Shown: positions 1 through 6,965 of the stretch, in pieces
How the letters are laid out: each line of letters opens with the position of its first letter
Numbering within the stretch: the stretch's first letter is position 1
DNA from: a virus
Reading direction: 5' to 3' (one strand)
UHGV virus genome: UHGV-0228105
Length of the DNA: 6,965 bases
Program-made: the position numbers and the translations under genes
The notes under the pieces: model-generated
The model's database searches: none
The model's input: the letters and a program-made list of their open reading frames with translations, nothing else
Told to the model about the DNA's origin: nothing

Positions 1-1825
1 CAATGCGGACCTTCCAGGCCACACCGTCAACAATAAAGCCCTCCTGCTGCTCAAGGTAAGGCTCGTCATTACCGTCAAGATAAGCCACCTCAATTGTGTC
101 CGTTCCCTGTGCTGAAAGCATGTACCATTGCTTATCACTGACTTCATCAAGGCGGGGATCGACAATAATATCCAGTTGTTTGTGGTACGGGTTATATGAA
201 CCACTGTTTGTATCGGCACCAAAAGGCGTGGTTGAGTTAACCATTTGCAACGCTCTGTCTTCCAGAGCCGCTGGAACAAGAAGGAATTTTGGCACAATAT
301 TCAGCACTTCACCGTTTTCATCCCTCTGTGTGCGCATTGCACGGCGTGCAATGCCAAGCCCTGTAGTGCTGACTCCGTTATCAATATCATTTCCGTGTTT
401 TTTGCTGAACAGCGGTATACCGTCAGAAAGCTTTGTGTTTCCTGTCAGCACCAGATGAACCAGATTACCCACCGTTCTGGCGGCTGCTCGCCCCATTGCC
501 TGTGGGATAACTGTTAACTGATTCAGGTCATCGTTAATAATCGCCTGTCGGGTAATGCTGAAAATATTTCCGTAAGTTGCCAGCGCGATTGGTTCGCCAC
601 GGTCACTGGTGGTGATGTATTTATATTCCGCGCCTTCCGGCACTTTGTTTAATGTAGAGAAGCCATTCAGGCCAACACGACGTGCCTCATGGAAGTTTGA
701 CAATGAACCTTTTTTCGTCCACTGGCGGAACGTTTCGCCGCTGTGTTCCCATCCGGCAAGCACGGATTTTTCAGCACCACCAGCAAGGATATAAGTAAAA
801 TCGCTGCTGCTGTGGGTGAATGCCGCGTTTACTATCTGCGAGCGTGTGCTGTAGCTGCCTGTGCTTATGCCGCGATGGGTTAATGATGCCTGCGCCATAT
901 CGAAAAGGCTCATCATGGCGTAAGGGTTGCCGCGTTCTGCCTGCTCGTGCCCAAGACGCGCATTAAGCCCCTGACGCATTGCATCACCCGTTATGTTGCC
1001 GTTATCCGTATATGCGTAGTAAAGATTTGCAGGTGTGGTTTTGTTTGTCGGTGTCGATTCTTTACCCATAGTGAGTAAAAGACGTTCGCGCGCATCCTCA
1101 ACGCTACACCCTGAATCAGCAAGACAACTTATAGCCAGGTCGTTATATCTTCCGTTGAACGTACCGAACAACTCACGGATCCCGTTGAGTCGTTCCTGTT
1201 CTCCGCTGGTAGTTTTCTGGCTGATCATGTTCTTAATATTTTCCGGCATATTTGAAAAATCTCCGATTCGTTTTGATTCAATTCGGGCCATTGCTGTAAT
1301 CGCGGGTATAACCTCGTCTGCGAAGCCGTTAGCCCTGCACTCGTTGCCATCCATCCAGGTTTCCGCCTCCATCATGGCGGTGATTTCCTGTTTGCTCTTC
1401 CCCGTTCTTCCGGCGTAGGTTTCCGCCATCGTGTCGCCCATCTTGTCCATCAGGTCGGCAAAGCGGCGAACATCTCCCGACACTCCGGCTGTAACGCCAC
1501 GGGGGGCGTGTATCATCATCATTGCGTTTTCAGGCATAACGATGTGATCGCCACACATGGCAATAAACGAGGCCATAGAAGCCGCCATACCTTCAATGTG
1601 TACGATTTTTTTTGCCGGATGATTTTTCAGGGCGTTATAGATAGCCAGCCCTTCAAAGATGTCACCACCTGGTGAATGAATGCTCAGATGGATTTCAGAC
1701 ACATTACCGCACGCGTTGATCTCGTCAGTAAGTGCCGATGCCTTTACACCGTACCCGCCGATCTCGTCATAAATGCGCACATGTGCAACATCTGACATAG
1801 CCTTAATGGAAAACCATGTTTTCAT
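1..1825 (-). CDS. ClpP-like (S14) prohead serine protease fused in-frame to a phage major capsid protein; start complete, 3' end runs off the left edge of the window
   Basis: Minus-strand frame is open from the ATG at 1825-1823 down to position 2 (608 codons, no stop). It is absent from the ORF track only because the stop lies outside the window. The N-terminal ~190 aa carry ClpP-type motifs (IHLSIHSPGGDIFEGLAIYNAL; GMAASMASFIAMCGD with a candidate catalytic Ser; MMMIHAPRGVTAG; ECRANGFADEVI). The C-terminal part (TYGNIFSITRQAIINDDLNQLTVIPQAMGRAAARTVGNLV ... PFGADTNSGSYNPY ... EVAYLDGNDEPYLEQQEGFIVDGVAWKVRI) looks like a phage major capsid protein. The start overlaps the upstream stop as ATGA. 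Plus-strand ORFs in 96-1418 are antisense artefacts. Confidence 0.8.
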   Translation of the reverse strand, partial: MKTWFSIKAMSDVAHVRIYDEIGGYGVKASALTDEINACGNVSEIHLSIHSPGGDIFEGLAIYNALKNHPAKKIVHIEGMAASMASFIAMCGDHIVMPENAMMMIHAPRGVTAGVSGDVRRFADLMDKMGDTMAETYAGRTGKSKQEITAMMEAETWMDGNECRANGFADEVIPAITAMARIESKRIGDFSNMPENIKNMISQKTTSGEQERLNGIRELFGTFNGRYNDLAISCLADSGCSVEDARERLLLTMGKESTPTNKTTPANLYYAYTDNGNITGDAMRQGLNARLGHEQAERGNPYAMMSLFDMAQASLTHRGISTGSYSTRSQIVNAAFTHSSSDFTYILAGGAEKSVLAGWEHSGETFRQWTKKGSLSNFHEARRVGLNGFSTLNKVPEGAEYKYITTSDRGEPIALATYGNIFSITRQAIINDDLNQLTVIPQAMGRAAARTVGNLVHLVLTGNTKLSDGIPLFSKKHGNDIDNGVSTTGLGIARRAMRTQRDENGEVLNIVPKFLLVPAALEDRALQMVNSTTPFGADTNSGSYNPYHKQLDIIVDPRLDEVSDKQWYMLSAQGTDTIEVAYLDGNDEPYLEQQEGFIVDGVAWKVRI

Positions 1826-2016
1826 AGCCAGGCTCCTAACGTTGCCTGGTACCAGTATTCAACCGCGCTGCGTGTGATTTGTCCTTTCGTGGGTACTGGC
1901 ATACCCGGGTGATTATCTTTGATGAACTGCTGATAGCGTTCGATCTTCTCCATAGTTCCGGCGTCTATGTGTACCGTGGCACTTTTATCCGGCTTTCTGG
2001 TGTTGTTCTCTGGCAT
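1822..2016 (-). CDS. Small protein (64 aa), possibly ribbon-helix-helix DNA-binding; translationally coupled to the protease-capsid gene
   Basis: ORF-track ORF 1822..2049 (75 aa). The internal ATG at 2016-2014 has a near-ideal Shine-Dalgarno (GGAGGCGGA, 7 nt spacer), so the start is placed there; 2049 is the alternative. Sequence MPENNTRKPDKSATVHIDAGTMEKIERYQQFIKDNHPGMPVPTKGQITRSAVEYWYQATLGAWL fits a strand-helix-loop-helix pattern. Stop TGA overlaps the downstream ATG (ATGA). Confidence 0.55.
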   Translation of the reverse strand: MPENNTRKPDKSATVHIDAGTMEKIERYQQFIKDNHPGMPVPTKGQITRSAVEYWYQATLGAWL

Positions 2017-2211
2017 AAATCCGCCTCCGTTTTGATTAACGGGCATCATTATTGATCGATAAAAGTAATAGATAAATCATTTTCTACCTGAAAATCAGAT
2101 TATGTTTTTTCTGATTATTCTCAGAGAGGCAAAGCCATTGACGCATTTTTGCTATTGAAGCAATATTAAGACTCGTCATCCTGGCGATAAAAACTCCTTT
2201 GTCGTGTAAAA

Positions 2212-2247
2212 GCGCCTCCGGTAACAGCAATCGGGGGCGCTTTTTTT
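2212..2247 (+). terminator. Rho-independent terminator-like hairpin, strongest on the plus strand
   Basis: GCGCCTCCG (2212-2220) / CGGGGGCGC (2232-2240) form a 9-bp stem with one G-U wobble on the plus-strand RNA, 11-nt loop, followed by T7 (2241-2247). On the minus strand the same stem has a C-A mismatch and only a 4-U tail. Confidence 0.45.
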
Positions 2248-2444
2248 GCGCCTGTTTTTTTGTAAATGTTTTCGGGAACGCTCCAGTGATGAACGAAAAA
2301 CAACCTTATTCGACACTAAAAATTTTTATTCCTCAATATATCAATAACTTATAGTGGTGGTGATGGTGCCATAAAAATCAAAAAATGCGCCTTTTTCCGC
2401 GCCCCTCCGCCCCGTGGACAGGCTCACCCCGCCAGGAGGACCCG

Positions 2445-2468
2445 CAAAAAAGCCGGATTGCTCCGGCT
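2445..2468 (-). terminator. Rho-independent terminator of the upstream minus-strand small genes
   Basis: Minus-strand RNA: stem GCCGGA / UCCGGC, or 7 bp if the flanking A-U pair is counted (plus 2451-2457 and 2462-2468), GCAA tetraloop (GNRA type), then a U5-6 tract (plus A-tract 2446-2450). Lies 7 nt downstream of the stop at 2475-2477. Confidence 0.55.
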
Positions 2469-2474
2469 GTGTGA

Positions 2475-2750
2475 TTAGCTGTCCTGGTAATTGCGCCATA
2501 TTTCATCGCTTACACCATCTATACCCATTTCAGCATAAGTGCGATCTACTGCCTTTCTCAGGTCACCGAAGTTATCCGGCGGCTCCGGTGGCCTCTGTGC
2601 CTTCCTGGAACATTCCAGCCGTCGCATCGTAACCTGATGCCGTTCCTTGTCTGTCTCCACCAGCAGCATGACTTCACCCCATCGCGCCGCCGCCCTCCGG
2701 TAAAAGCCTTTCGCCTCGAGTTCCTCCGCTATGCGGTCATGTACCATCAC
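2475..2750 (-). CDS. Small protein (91 aa), tentatively PerC/Pch-family transcriptional activator-like
   Basis: ORF-track ORF; overlaps the upstream ORF by 14 nt and is followed by a terminator. N-terminal segment DRIAEELEAKGFYRRAAARWGEVML matches my recollection of the PerC-family signature (acidic helix then RRAA-RW). This is recalled, not searched. Confidence 0.5.
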   Translation of the reverse strand: MMVHDRIAEELEAKGFYRRAAARWGEVMLLVETDKERHQVTMRRLECSRKAQRPPEPPDNFGDLRKAVDRTYAEMGIDGVSDEIWRNYQDS

Positions 2751-3021
2751 CTGACTCTCCGGTTTTTACGTTGATGGTTGTTACCTGTTCCGCTTCGGCA
2801 ATCTCCCGTTCTGTCATCGTGGCAAAGTTTGCCGACGCCGTGGTCATGAATGCGCTTATCAGTTCGGGATGTTCCTTCGCGTATCCTTCCCCGGCGTGGC
2901 GGTCTATCGTTCTGATTGCCACCTTTAATGCGTGCTCTGTCATGTCTAACGCGCGATATTTCGGTTCTGTTCTGTCTCTGCATTTTTTGAGTGATTTGTT
3001 AAATTTCCCTGAAGTGTGCAT
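2737..3021 (-). CDS. Hypothetical protein (94 aa)
   Basis: ORF-track ORF with protein-like composition. Purine-rich GAGGGGG lies ~11 nt upstream of the ATG at 3021. Sits immediately downstream of the iteron region. A competing 78-aa arginine-rich ORF (2747..2983) in another frame is judged spurious. Confidence 0.5.
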   Translation of the reverse strand: MHTSGKFNKSLKKCRDRTEPKYRALDMTEHALKVAIRTIDRHAGEGYAKEHPELISAFMTTASANFATMTEREIAEAEQVTTINVKTGESGDGT

Positions 3022-3060
3022 TTTTATTTTTACCCCCTCGTTTAAAAAGTTTTGAGTTGT

Positions 3061-3300
3061 ACCTCTCCCCCTCTACCCCTTCTACCCAGCACCACCAAAA
3101 GCCAGCAATGGCGCACCTTTCAGCAGGGTAGAGGGCTTTTAATCCCCTTCTACCCGCCCTCTACCTGTCTACCTGGAATTGATAAAATCAGGTAGAAGAG
3201 GTAGAGGGCTTTTATTAGCCTTCGACCTGGCCCTCTACCCACCTATCATATTGAATAATATATATTTATTTACTTCAGGTAGAGGAGGTAGAGGGCTTTT
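3061..3300. repeat. Iteron array with AT-rich core: candidate origin of replication
   Basis: At least 11 copies of a 9-mer family in both orientations. GGTAGAGGGCTTTT occurs at 3127-3140, 3200-3213 and 3287-3300; degenerate copies GGTAGAAGA at 3191-3199 and GGTAGAGGA at 3278-3286. Inverse copies CCCTCTACC at 3069-3077, 3157-3165 and 3231-3239; CTTCTACCC at 3079-3087 and 3147-3155; TCTACC at 3168-3173. A 30-bp almost pure AT stretch lies at 3245-3275. The array ends 9 nt from the primase stop codon. Confidence 0.6.
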
Positions 3301-3308
3301 GCAAAAAA

Positions 3309-5057
3309 TTATAAAAACGCGTCACAATCGTCTGTTGTTATTGCGTTAGTCTGCGTTACTCCCTTAACTTTCCGAGTAATATATTCATGACCGTAAACTT
3401 TCGCAGCGGGTTTCATAGCTTTGCTGAACTCAGCCACGTTTAGCGGCTTGTTCCTTCCGGCGTATGCCATAAACGCCAGATAGACGCGGTAAAGGCTGTT
3501 TCTGGTCGTGTACCTGGAAGAGTCACCACCACCGCCCATCATCAGGCCGTGCGCTTCCTCCAGAAAATTAAGAAACTGGCAAAACTCAATAACCGGATCC
3601 GTTTGCTGCTTTATCGCCAGTGCTTCATCACCGTCACGCTGTTCCAGTAGTAAAGCCCGCGCCTTTTCAGGGTCGGCAAAGTTCGCCAGTAATCGGCGGA
3701 TAATGACGGGGATTTCAGCCGCGATTTTTTCCGGTAGCTCCCTGTCTTTTTCAGCCTCACTGACGATATTGTCGAAACGGAAAATCACGCGACGACGTGC
3801 CACGCCTCCGGCCCGTTCGGTGAATATCATCGGGTTGTTGTTGGTTGCCAGCACAACCGCCCTGATTACCGCTGTGAAACGCTTCTCATATTTCGGGTTA
3901 ATTTCCACGGGGTCACCGCCCGTGATTTTCTTGATGCCCGTGCCTTCGCCTGTATATTTCGGCTGGTCAGCCAGGACAATAAGCCGACTCCCGACAACCT
4001 GCGCACGCCCACCAGCATCATCAAGCGATGTCATCTCAGCACTTACCGTGTTCTGTTTCCCTGCCAGAAGGCTGGCTATATGCGTAAATGTACTCTTGCC
4101 GCTCCCGCCCTCTCCTGTGGCCTCAATAAACATCTGCCAGTCGTACCGGTTCGCCATAATCATGTACAGCGCGGCACATATACGCATCATCTTGCGCGGG
4201 TCTTTTCCGGCTGCGTGCTCAAGCCATTTATGAAAGTTTGGCGCGTTGTCGCGAATGTTCTCCCCTGGTGCTGGTGGCGTGTACTCAATGCCGTTGTGCG
4301 TGGTGATCCAGTTCTCCGGCGTGTGCGGGGAAAACTCCCCCGTTTTCAGGTCAAGCGCACCATTGGCGAACGGCAGCAAATCGCCGGACGGCTCGCCCAT
4401 TGGTTCGGCAATAACTTTTAACGCTTCCACGGCGTTATTGATTACGCGCTTGCTGAACGTGGCTTTATGTTCTGAATAAATCGCCACCATTTCGCGGCTC
4501 AGCTCCATTGTGCTGACCGGGCACCATACCCCGCCGCGCCAGATGTGGACGATTTCACTTTCCGGATCCACACAAACGCCATCAAATCGACCAGCAAGCA
4601 TCTGTGCGCGCTCACTGTCTGCCATTTGTGCCAGTTGCGTATTTTTCTGCTCCGGCATGGTAATCCCTGCGGCAATATTTTCACGCTCAGCATTCAGATA
4701 GCGCCGCCAGTTTTCACACTTCTGACCGTGCATTCCTTCTGGGTAAAAATTCGCATCCTGAATATCTGCCACCGCCAGCTTCTGACCAATCTTTTTGGTC
4801 TCCACTAAATCCAGTTCTCCGGCCTGGTACAGCCTTACGCGCTTTTTCCCATCCGGAACAATTTTCAGCGCATCAAGTTCGGCAAGCTGCTTTGGCCCAA
4901 GCCACACAGGCGGCACATTATCGCCGGATGCGGGGCCATCCTGTTCCTGCCATTGTTCCGCGTGTGACCAGGCATCACTACCCGCAAAGATAATTACCTC
5001 TGTGTCTTTGTGTTTTATTCCGCGTGGCTGTTTTTTTACGTTCGGTGCCAGTTTCAC
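3309..5057 (-). CDS. Primase-helicase / replication initiator of the D5 / P4-alpha (SF3 NTPase) family, 582 aa
   Basis: Long ORF-track ORF. Walker A GEGGSGKST followed by a hydrophobic stretch ending in acidic residue (RLIVLADQ), typical of phage/plasmid primase C-terminal NTPase domains. Start is GTG at 5057-5055 with AGGGG ~8 nt upstream, overlapping the upstream stop (GTGA). Stop TAA at 3311-3309. An N-terminal primase catalytic motif is not recognisable by eye. Confidence 0.88.
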   Translation of the reverse strand: MKLAPNVKKQPRGIKHKDTEVIIFAGSDAWSHAEQWQEQDGPASGDNVPPVWLGPKQLAELDALKIVPDGKKRVRLYQAGELDLVETKKIGQKLAVADIQDANFYPEGMHGQKCENWRRYLNAERENIAAGITMPEQKNTQLAQMADSERAQMLAGRFDGVCVDPESEIVHIWRGGVWCPVSTMELSREMVAIYSEHKATFSKRVINNAVEALKVIAEPMGEPSGDLLPFANGALDLKTGEFSPHTPENWITTHNGIEYTPPAPGENIRDNAPNFHKWLEHAAGKDPRKMMRICAALYMIMANRYDWQMFIEATGEGGSGKSTFTHIASLLAGKQNTVSAEMTSLDDAGGRAQVVGSRLIVLADQPKYTGEGTGIKKITGGDPVEINPKYEKRFTAVIRAVVLATNNNPMIFTERAGGVARRRVIFRFDNIVSEAEKDRELPEKIAAEIPVIIRRLLANFADPEKARALLLEQRDGDEALAIKQQTDPVIEFCQFLNFLEEAHGLMMGGGGDSSRYTTRNSLYRVYLAFMAYAGRNKPLNVAEFSKAMKPAAKVYGHEYITRKVKGVTQTNAITTDDCDAFL

Positions 5058-5815: not shown

Positions 5816-6038
5816 GGTGTACCCCTCCGCATTTTTTTTCGTTAGAAATAAGCGTTCTTCTTTCCTGTTCATCGCTCAGGAATACGCAGACCTCACCGCT
5901 AAGGCGTTTAAGTAAGCCGATGATTGCCCCTGATTCGCTGTCGGTCATCATGCCAGGGTAATCCTCTGCCAGTGCGCAAATAACTTCGATTTGGTGGGCG
6001 CGTTCTGCTGCCTGTTGTAGTGTGATTTCCTGGCTCAT
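5805..6038 (-). CDS. Hypothetical small protein (77 aa from the proposed start)
   Basis: ORF-track ORF 5805..6095. Start placed at the ATG at 6038-6036 (MSQEITLQQAAERAHQIEV...), preceded by AGGAGGT at about -8 and overlapping the upstream stop as ATGA. Confidence 0.55.
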   Translation of the reverse strand: MSQEITLQQAAERAHQIEVICALAEDYPGMMTDSESGAIIGLLKRLSGEVCVFLSDEQERRTLISNEKKCGGVHHVQ

Positions 6039-6229
6039 AAGCCTACCTCCTGACGAATACGGGCGGCAAATACAGCAACACAACCGGACGGGCAACGGTT
6101 ACGCGCTTCGCGTTCCGTCCAGGCGGTTACGTGGATGATTTGAGATTCTCCGGCACTCAGGGCCAGAAAACGCCACACAAAGGCCGTTTGTGTGTGTGCT
6201 AGTCGTGGAGTATGATTTACGGCAACCAT
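6035..6229 (-). CDS. Hypothetical small protein (64 aa), first gene of the minus-strand operon
   Basis: ORF-track ORF. GAGAGGT Shine-Dalgarno ~9 nt upstream of the ATG at 6229. Contains a Cys pair (RNRCPSGC). Lies ~95 nt downstream of the predicted promoter. Confidence 0.5.
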   Translation of the reverse strand: MVAVNHTPRLAHTQTAFVWRFLALSAGESQIIHVTAWTEREARNRCPSGCVAVFAARIRQEVGL

Positions 6230-6308
6230 AAATTTACCTCTCTATAGTGTTTGTGGTTAGAGGCCCTGCTAGTGGTAGCGACACTTGCGGGGCTTTGCAT
6301 TTATGAAC

Positions 6309-6361
6309 CCTGAGCAGCTCAGGTGTGGCCCACTATATGTTTTAGGTGTGGCCCACGTCAA
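6309..6361 (-). promoter_or_regulatory. Control region: predicted sigma70-like promoter for the minus-strand operon, overlapped by a perfect palindrome and two 13-bp direct repeats
   Basis: On the minus strand: -35 TTGACG (plus 6356-6361), 18-nt spacer, -10 TATAGT (plus 6332-6337). Direct repeats AGGTGTGGCCCAC at 6321-6333 and 6344-6356, each containing GTGG-N-CCAC, with 23 bp between starts. Perfect palindrome CCTGAGC-A-GCTCAGG at 6309-6323, at or just downstream of the predicted start site. Confidence 0.45.
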
Positions 6362-6422
6362 GGGTTTTATTTGCGCTTTTTCTGTGTATACTGTCCCCCA
6401 CCAATCAACAGGAGAAACAGCA

Positions 6423-6602
6423 ATGGCAACGGGTACAACAAACGCAAAATCACAAGCTTTAAAGGCTCGTGTACCGCATGAAATAGTTGACGCAATGGAA
6501 TCAGTGAAAGACTCAGGCGAAAGCACATCACAATTTATCATTACGTCAATGCAAGGCGAGATCAAACGCCGCCAGCGCCGCAAGGCCAAAGAAGCGGAAT
6601 AA
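6423..6602 (+). CDS. Small ribbon-helix-helix (CopG/Arc-like) DNA-binding protein, 59 aa; candidate repressor
   Basis: ATG at 6423 preceded by AGGAGA (6410-6415, 7-nt spacer). Sequence MATGTTNAKSQALKARVPHEIVDAMESVKDSGESTSQFIITSMQGEIKRRQRRKAKEAE fits strand (LKARVP), helix (HEIVDAMESVKDSG), helix (STSQFIITSMQGEI). It is the only plus-strand gene, divergent from the operon and convergent with alpA. The overlapping 153-aa minus ORF (6269..6730) is judged spurious. Confidence 0.55.
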   Translation: MATGTTNAKSQALKARVPHEIVDAMESVKDSGESTSQFIITSMQGEIKRRQRRKAKEAE

Positions 6603-6740: not shown

Positions 6741-6965
6741 TTACGCTGCCTTACCTGAATTAATGCGATCCCGGCTTTTAACCCATTCCATAACCTCGGA
6801 CAGCAGCCAACCTACAGAACGACCGCCCAGATTAAGGCGTGACGGAAATCGCCCTTTTTTCTCCAGTTCGTAGCGTGTAGTACGGCACACTCCAGTTAAC
6901 TTACGACATTCATCCTCACGGATTACGCGATCTGATAGTGATTGAAATTGTGTATTTTGATTCAT
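6741..6965 (-). CDS. alpA: AlpA-family (MerR-type HTH, excisionase-like) transcriptional regulator
   Basis: Translation contains the AlpA-type core CRKLTGVCRTTRYELEKKGRFPSRLNLGGRSVGWLLSEVMEWVKSR (compare the recalled pattern L-x-R-S-T-I-Y-x-L-x-x-G-x-FP-x-P-x-x-LGGR-x-V-GW-x-x-SE-V-x-x-W). The ATG falls exactly at the window edge (6965-6963), so the true N-terminus could lie outside the window. Confidence 0.85.
   Translation of the reverse strand: MNQNTQFQSLSDRVIREDECRKLTGVCRTTRYELEKKGRFPSRLNLGGRSVGWLLSEVMEWVKSRDRINSGKAA

Follow-up and report, generated by a model that had tools for sequence, protein, structure and literature searches.

A PerC-family gene carried by a PICI-like satellite: almost certainly an allele of pchE and probably an accessory regulator

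The window analyzed here, a stretch of 6,965 nucleotides of viral DNA, carries a PerC-family gene which is almost certainly an intact allele of the already named pchE. As for its role, it seems moderately probable that pchE is an accessory ('moron'-type) regulator which alters host physiology, being neither a LEE activator nor required by the satellite. A preliminary description of this DNA had placed a possible PerC/Pch-like activator of the LEE, acting through ler, downstream of the origin of a satellite. Its position holds, as the origin iterons sit between the primase gene and the pchE frame, and so does the carriage of a PerC-family gene on a satellite, since a full-length protein of the family is encoded within an alpA-primase-ori-cos island; the proposed action on the LEE is treated below together with the published phenotypes. 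The observation is correct but ordinary: the naming of pchE dates back two decades, and both the gene and its residence in phage-inducible chromosomal islands (PICIs; EcCIEDL933, EcCICFT073) have already been published.

The minus-strand frame 2475..2750 from which the family had been proposed is present and encodes exactly the peptide DRIAEELEAKGFYRRAAARWGEVML, which takes up residues 4-28 when numbering begins at the ATG. The frame itself stands, but its upstream end was set 3 nt too far: because a GGAGAG motif lies 7 nt upstream of the ATG at 2747-2745, and Sakai pchE is annotated as 90 aa, this codon is the likely start rather than the GTG at 2750. The resemblance to the PerC family was substantiated by a Pfam search, in which PF06069 matched the protein over its full length at E 2.4e-45 (153.2 bits, where the curated cut-off is 22.6; 89 of the 90 profile positions, residues 2-90 of the 91-aa GTG translation), far above chance expectation. 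The product also matched PHROG 994 (E 8.4e-47). The motif G14, R17 R18 A19, R22 W23, R43 and C46 is invariant in an alignment of seq­uences comprising seven proteins with the references, where it is common to PerC, PchA-C, PchD and PchE, and its columns are invariant or more than 90% conserved in an alignment of 44 sequences. At 90 aa and inside an alpA-primase-ori-cos satellite, the protein has the small size (~10 kDa) and the location on a horizontally transferred element that are typical of the PerC family. By the NCBIfam test it is no member of the ANR family, since NF033650 reached only 18.3 bits, over residues 7-53, against a cut-off of 32. The pchE alleles compared are all intact and their dN/dS is 0.21 across 11 unique sequences; the gene is functional where present and under purifying selection. 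Of 5426 complete E. coli genomes, 766 (14%) contain DNA resembling pchE.

The affiliation within the family was studied by aligning the protein to four reference loci: Sakai PchE, Sakai PchD, a 104-aa protein of the PchA-C type encoded beside prophage lysis genes, and PerC from EPEC pMAR2. The family kinship with PerC and PchA-C is clear, as had been expected, but the grouping is with PchE. The window protein has the same length as Sakai PchE (ECs_1588 / NP_309615, Sp7 / O-island 51) and is 98% identical to it (88 of 90 residues; the differences are R53K and Q88P), and the gene lies in the slot after the primase that is of the Sp7/OI-51 type. Its identity to PchD is 38%, and it falls outside the sequence group 1 (PerC, PchA, PchB, PchC), with 41% to the PchA-C type and 42% to PerC against 98% to PchE. 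One database homologue carries the name 'transcriptional regulator PchE'. Among the perC homologues of EHEC, PchE has been labeled 'group 3' (PMC6265319, PMC5931665).

The surroundings of the gene (Table 1) have the layout of Gram-negative PICIs (PMC6092414), with alpA, pri-rep and an adjacent iteron origin, a cos-like site and one direction of transcription. Read along the minus strand, the window runs from alpA through small ORFs, DUF4222, the P4-type primase, the iteron origin and the 94-aa ORF to pchE, which is followed on its 3' side by ~460 nt of intergenic DNA with a terminator-like hairpin and the cos-like site, and then by the 64-aa ORF and the capsid gene. The borders of the window fall inside alpA and the capsid gene; in related loci an integrase lies beside alpA. 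The primase gene also matched NCBIfam TIGR01613 (110 bits, cut-off 108.7), and the placement of the origin immediately after it is that described for PICIs (PMC6092414); some of the iterons are contained in longer repeats of 26-33 nt, spaced by 73-87 nt. The 94-aa ORF had no match in Pfam, NCBIfam or PADLOC. Its stop overlaps the start of pchE, and the pair is therefore co-transcribed and translationally coupled. The 64-aa ORF belongs to a PHROG family of unknown function; the mechanical frame has 75 aa and begins at 2049, but relatives annotate 64 aa. It is ATGA-coupled to the protease/capsid fusion gene, whose identity comes from the annotation of homologous E. coli loci. In the interval between alpA and the replication gene, a YlcI/YnfO-family gene (6285-6602, plus) and a 64-aa ORF (6035-6229, minus) form a divergent pair; the latter has matches among the PHROG 'transcriptional repressor' families and is listed in E. 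coli records as an Icd-like cell-division inhibitor.

Table 1 Features of the window around pchE and their coordinates
Feature	Coordinates	Strand	Remarks
ClpP-like prohead protease / major capsid protein fusion	1..1825	minus	open from ATG 1825; gene cut by the left window edge
64-aa ORF	1825..2016	minus	Shine-Dalgarno GGAGG, ATG at 2016; PHROG 4934, E 5.7e-51
AT-rich spacer	2017..2400	minus	~385 nt, 35-41% GC; between cos-like site and capsid module
cos-like site	2401..2443	minus	cosQ GGGTCCT 2443-2437; cosN-like 12-mer GGGCGGAGGGGC 2412-2401
Intrinsic-terminator-like hairpin	2445..2468	minus	AGCCGGA-gcaa-TCCGGCT + TTTTTTG; begins 7 nt past the pchE stop
pchE CDS	2475..2747	minus	90 aa + stop; PerC-family 'group 3' homologue
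Upstream ORF, up to 94 aa	2737..3021	minus	ECs_1586 homologue; PHROG 1231, E 1.4e-49; blastn to Sp7 90.6%
Shine-Dalgarno GGAGAG	2757..2762	minus	7 nt 5' of the pchE ATG; read from the sequence
Replication origin	3060..3300		≥10 GGTAGAGGG(C) iterons, lying in either orientation; repeat finder
P4-family primase/helicase (pri-rep)	3309..5057	minus	Pfam D5_N, DUF5906, Pox_D5
alpA, AlpA-family regulator, PICI master activator	6741..6965	minus	Pfam Phage_AlpA, E 2e-16; gene cut by the window end

The only morphogenesis genes visible in the window are the 64-aa ORF and the protease/capsid fusion gene, and in S19-651 and two other related E. coli islands (L022 and L023) the island ends soon after the fusion gene, without portal or terminase. 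This layout is unlike both the Sp7-type capsid-forming PICIs (cf-PICIs) and the EcCICFT073 type. Sp7 / O-island 51 fits the capsid-forming PICI EcCIEDL933, of ~15 kb and with capsid, portal and terminase genes (10.1101/2022.09.08.507074). Islands of the EcCICFT073 type are said to be devoid of capsid morphogenesis genes (PMC6092414), but the current RefSeq annotation disagrees, as it places a major capsid protein and a head decoration protein upstream of rppA (9169-10997 in EcCICFT073, L104; 10082-11910 in L003) and, in L003, a head-tail connector as well.

The gap between pchE and the capsid gene begins with the hairpin, at 2468-2451 without its T-run, which is the structure given by RNA folding of 2430-2480 (-16.8 kcal/mol, with a z-score of only -1.55). 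It is kept in islands without pchE and is common to cos1 of EcCICFT073. The adjoining cos-like site, in which ACG is directly followed by GGGCGGAGGGGC, is colinear with that of lambda (GGGTCCT, 20 nt, then ACG directly followed by GGGCGGCGACCT), both in order and in spacing. In EcCICFT073, whose cos1 was validated experimentally (PMC6092414), hairpin, cosQ and cosN are laid out as in the window, including the preceding ATCCGGCTTTTTT, but cosN there is the lambda 12-mer, whereas in the window the variant GGGCGGAGGGGC takes its place. Because of this replacement, the sequence suggests a helper terminase other than the lambda/phi80 type. In S19-651, L022 and L023 the cos-like unit of ~100 nt (2358-2456) has a second copy behind the capsid gene, so that two cos-like sites of the same orientation flank the capsid module in these relatives. 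The second copies are located at 9820-9918 in L001 and at 5819-5918 in L022 and L023.

In the middle of the gap, within 2208-2253, there is a further hairpin with 13-bp arms (2208-2244; AAAAGCGCCTCCG / CGGGGGCGCTTTT) and T-runs on both strands. It looks like a bidirectional terminator, judging from the sequence, and could also be the end of a small RNA or part of cosB. A sub-threshold Rfam match to ctRNA_p42d on the plus strand (23 bits, gathering score 50) overlaps it. Searched at a permissive threshold, the whole window yielded only sub-threshold, chance-level Rfam matches, and accordingly no known RNA is assigned to the gap. Consensus promoter scans of the coding strand in the gap and the origin gave no match of at least 9/12, and 8/12 only with relaxed rules; the best promoter-like match in the spacer is a weak extended -10-like TGaTATATT (2343-2335). 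No promoter for pchE or the capsid gene could be placed from these scans of gap and origin.

The comparison of related islands indicates that pchE is a cassette which is quite likely optional and lies outside the core gene set of the satellite. The DNA of pchE and the hairpin (2446-2751) is 96.7% identical to Sp7 in pairwise blastn, and the homology ends just past the hairpin. Because it breaks directly after this terminator, the packaging modules of the window and Sp7 are unrelated, and pchE is paired with unrelated downstream modules in different islands. A PerC-family gene occupies the equivalent slot in Sp7, STEC1024, S19-651 and EcCICFT073. L022 and L023 are 97% identical to positions 1702-2473 of the window, which run from the hairpin and the cos-like site through the gap into the capsid gene, and pchE is precisely missing from their slot. 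In L022 it is replaced by ~25 nt (8474-8499), the homologue of the 94-aa ORF abutting the hairpin, and in L023 by an SSB gene (8469-8916). The fact that near-identical islands differ by pchE as a precise unit is evidence for its status as a cassette. At their far end, L022 and L023 have a different PerC-family gene of 100 aa (WP_001360810, ~47% identical), which is the last of the island. Since some islands without slot pchE (L022, L023, L035, L083, L084) carry such a far-end gene, the slot count may understate how often some PerC function is retained.

This count was obtained from 80 IMG/VR loci, which were sampled with the primase rather than PerC as the anchor and then searched with a PerC HMM. 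In this sample, which is redundant and confined to close relatives of one primase, a PerC gene occupies the slot in 19 of the 76 loci long enough to be evaluated: 9 of 11 Sp7-type cf-PICIs, 9 of 28 of the CFT073 type, and one whose capsid module was not identified. The gene lies at the island end in 3 loci, and 12 loci with at least 6 kb beyond the primase have no PerC gene downstream or in the flanks. A scan across genera, with one genome per species, retrieved PchE-like genes from E. albertii, E. ruysiae, Atlantibacter, Kluyvera, Shimwellia, Enterobacter, Buttiauxella and others. In the other genera of Enterobacterales, 12 of 13 loci have the gene directly behind a P4-type primase, SSB being present or absent, and alpA was seen upstream in 8 of these 12. 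The idea of a core PICI gene, to which this synteny had given rise, was largely dropped, as the primase-anchored census shows that the slot often lacks a PerC gene.

The structure of PchE was modeled with AlphaFold2 from 44 homologues (mean pLDDT 86). The model consists of four helices (5-13, 16-27, 33-50 and 60-73), and PchE is thus predicted to be a small all-helical TPR-like bundle without a helix-turn-helix. Foldseek returned nothing at E <1 for this model, the likeness of fold being generic, and a PDB sequence search with the family profile gave nothing meaningful (best E 0.05, a MarR-family protein). Because the predicted fold is devoid of a helix-turn-helix, PchE might act through protein contacts, a mode that we propose only tentatively.

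Taken as an accessory regulator, pchE would close the PICI replication operon on its 3' side as an optional cassette, co-transcribed with the 94-aa ORF. Its product would contact nucleoid-associated silencing complexes or activators, by analogy with the group 1 Pch proteins, which displace H-NS, and with the related ANR proteins, whose binding partners are H-NS and AraC-type regulators. The product would act on host loci and not on the morphogenesis genes of the island: curli and csgD would go down, flagella up, and ler would barely change. Published phenotypes go in this direction, as pchE overexpression lowers csgD/curli and biofilm and raises flagella (PMC6265319, PMC7369912). Nevertheless, all the PchE phenotypes come from plasmid overexpression, and deletion had little effect (PMC6265319, PMC7369912). 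Moreover, H-NS anti-silencing has been demonstrated only for group 1 Pch, and the match of fold is generic. The far-end PerC-family genes of the five islands listed above, together with the redundancy of an IMG/VR sample limited to close relatives of one primase, also weigh against this explanation, and the constant site of the gene before cos and capsid, inside an AlpA-driven operon, fits a role in satellite induction no less well than one in the quiescent lysogen.

One such role is that of the satellite's own regulator: an early, AlpA-driven product which would activate or de-silence the AT-rich region before the 64-aa ORF and the capsid gene. The preliminary description had named this as its alternative, with a late promoter of the island in the adjacent gap (2050-2470). 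Several observations are in line with it. pchE is the last gene before the terminator-like hairpin, the cos-like site and a spacer of low GC content whose coding strand yielded no good sigma-70 promoter in the scans; the slot is conserved over three types of packaging module and across genera, and is filled in most of the Sp7-type cf-PICIs of the primase-anchored sample. In addition, group 1 Pch proteins anti-silence H-NS on AT-rich DNA: they activate LEE1 only where it is silenced by H-NS/StpA/Hha/YdgT, and they reduce H-NS occupancy (PMC4764244). Yet the same gap and capsid module exist in L022 and L023 without slot pchE, in 57 of the 76 evaluable loci the slot is without a PerC gene, and the 12 long loci mentioned above have no such gene at all. 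What immediately follows pchE is a terminator and a cos-like site without any obvious promoter, and the modules found there in different islands are unrelated, with no evident shared target sequence. Furthermore, the PchE model has no DNA-binding fold, and pchE mRNA falls on SOS induction in the O157 strain PA20 (PMC5931665). It is therefore unlikely that PchE serves as the regulator of its own island.

A wider version of the idea, which we consider comparably improbable, is that PchE-type proteins are life-cycle factors, TPR-like adaptors that would strip H-NS-type silencers off the AT-rich cos/capsid region. In that case, PchE would be expressed together with the replication operon when the satellite is induced, the de-silencing of host loci would be incidental and would explain the effects of overexpression on curli and flagella, and in islands without a slot copy a further PerC-family gene at the far end would compensate. 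If this were true, the 'Pch' family would serve phages and satellites quite generally as a means of anti-silencing, and the activation of the LEE by PchA-C would be a derived side use.

PchE could alternatively act on the helper phage, by interference or by modulating helper genes, and not on genes of the host or the island. PerC-family genes are indeed common in temperate phages (SfV orf40, SfII, SfIV, mEp460, ST64B) and are found even in lytic phages of ~70 kb such as FSL SP-076 and Pylas, and Gram-positive PICIs usually have interference genes after the origin (PMC6739421). However, when the post-origin genes of EcCICFT073 were cloned singly, only c1503 (rppA) cut lambda plaquing (PMC6739421), and the PerC-like gene of this island is one of the post-origin genes, located between the SSB and capsid genes. 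The PADLOC defence models matched neither PchE nor the 94-aa or the 64-aa ORF. An effect on the helper is thus very doubtful.

Least probable of all is that PchE would be an activator of ler and the LEE like PerC and PchA-C, with the satellite delivering a virulence activator. The Pfam family and the invariant N-terminal motif are those of PerC and PchA-C, and some PICI homologues of PerC activate the LEE according to Fillol-Salom 2018 (PMC6092414), but the identity to the active proteins is only 41-42%. On a ler-lacZ fusion the effect of PchE was significant but small, less than 2-fold, versus 5- to 8-fold for PchA-C as calculated from the reported Miller units (PMC5931665), and pchD and pchE had only a slight effect on the LEE (PMC6265319). 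Overexpressed pchE even lowered adhesion and eae (PMC7369912). The homologues of EcCIEDL933 and EcCICFT073 left LEE1-lacZ unaffected, as far as the results of Porter 2005 are relayed in PMC11773190. The distribution of the gene also argues against such a role, since the E. coli genomes that carry it include uropathogenic CFT073 and it is found in PICIs of Enterobacter, Kluyvera, Shimwellia and Buttiauxella. The LEE activation put forward in the preliminary description is thus contradicted by published work on alleles nearly identical to this one. A role as the packaging-redirection protein Rpp is ruled out, as Rpp corresponds to c1503, a wHTH protein of 144 aa encoded further downstream.

The useful outcome is a correction: a PerC-family match on a satellite does not amount to a 'LEE activator', since several laboratories have put the PchE subgroup to that test and it did not pass. 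pchE is widespread in E. coli without the LEE and in other Enterobacterales. The remaining interest lies in the role of PerC-family proteins for the phages and satellites that carry them, and the precise pairs of presence and absence (the window or S19-651 versus L022 or L023) would provide natural isogenic material on this question.

The system closest to the window is Sp7, where the order is primase, ECs_1586, SSB, pchE, ECs_1589 and then the capsid genes (PMC3378721). As in the window, pchE follows the primase and the ECs_1586 homologue and is bordered by the same terminator, but in Sp7 an SSB gene, absent from this place in the window, separates the two ORFs, and a full capsid/portal/terminase module stands where the window has the protease-MCP fusion gene. 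In EcCICFT073, the PerC-like gene lies in the equivalent slot, after the primase, a hypothetical gene and SSB. Its product (WP_000233305, 82 aa) equals the window protein over residues 1-57 save for L28Q, whereas the C-terminal third is shorter and divergent. The group 1 proteins, that is PerC of EPEC pMAR2 and PchA-C of the EHEC lambdoid prophages, share the Pfam family and the N-terminal motif with PchE but are encoded in the plasmid perABC operon or beside lambdoid prophage lysis genes and not in a PICI; they strongly activate ler and relieve H-NS silencing, whereas PchE does not appreciably activate ler (PMC5931665, PMC4764244). PchD (ECs_1388, SpLE1), of 'group 2', is a PerC-family protein of ~89 aa, 38% identical to the window protein, that left ler unaffected in published tests; its gene belongs to the tellurite/Iha island, beside ibrA/ybdM, and not to a satellite. 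Finally, the PICI-borne, PerC-like EcCIMP1_025 and the ANR/Aar family are, like PchE, small helical regulators on mobile elements, and EcCIMP1_025, which is ~40% identical to the homologues of EcCIEDL933 and EcCICFT073, represses LEE1 (PMC11773190).
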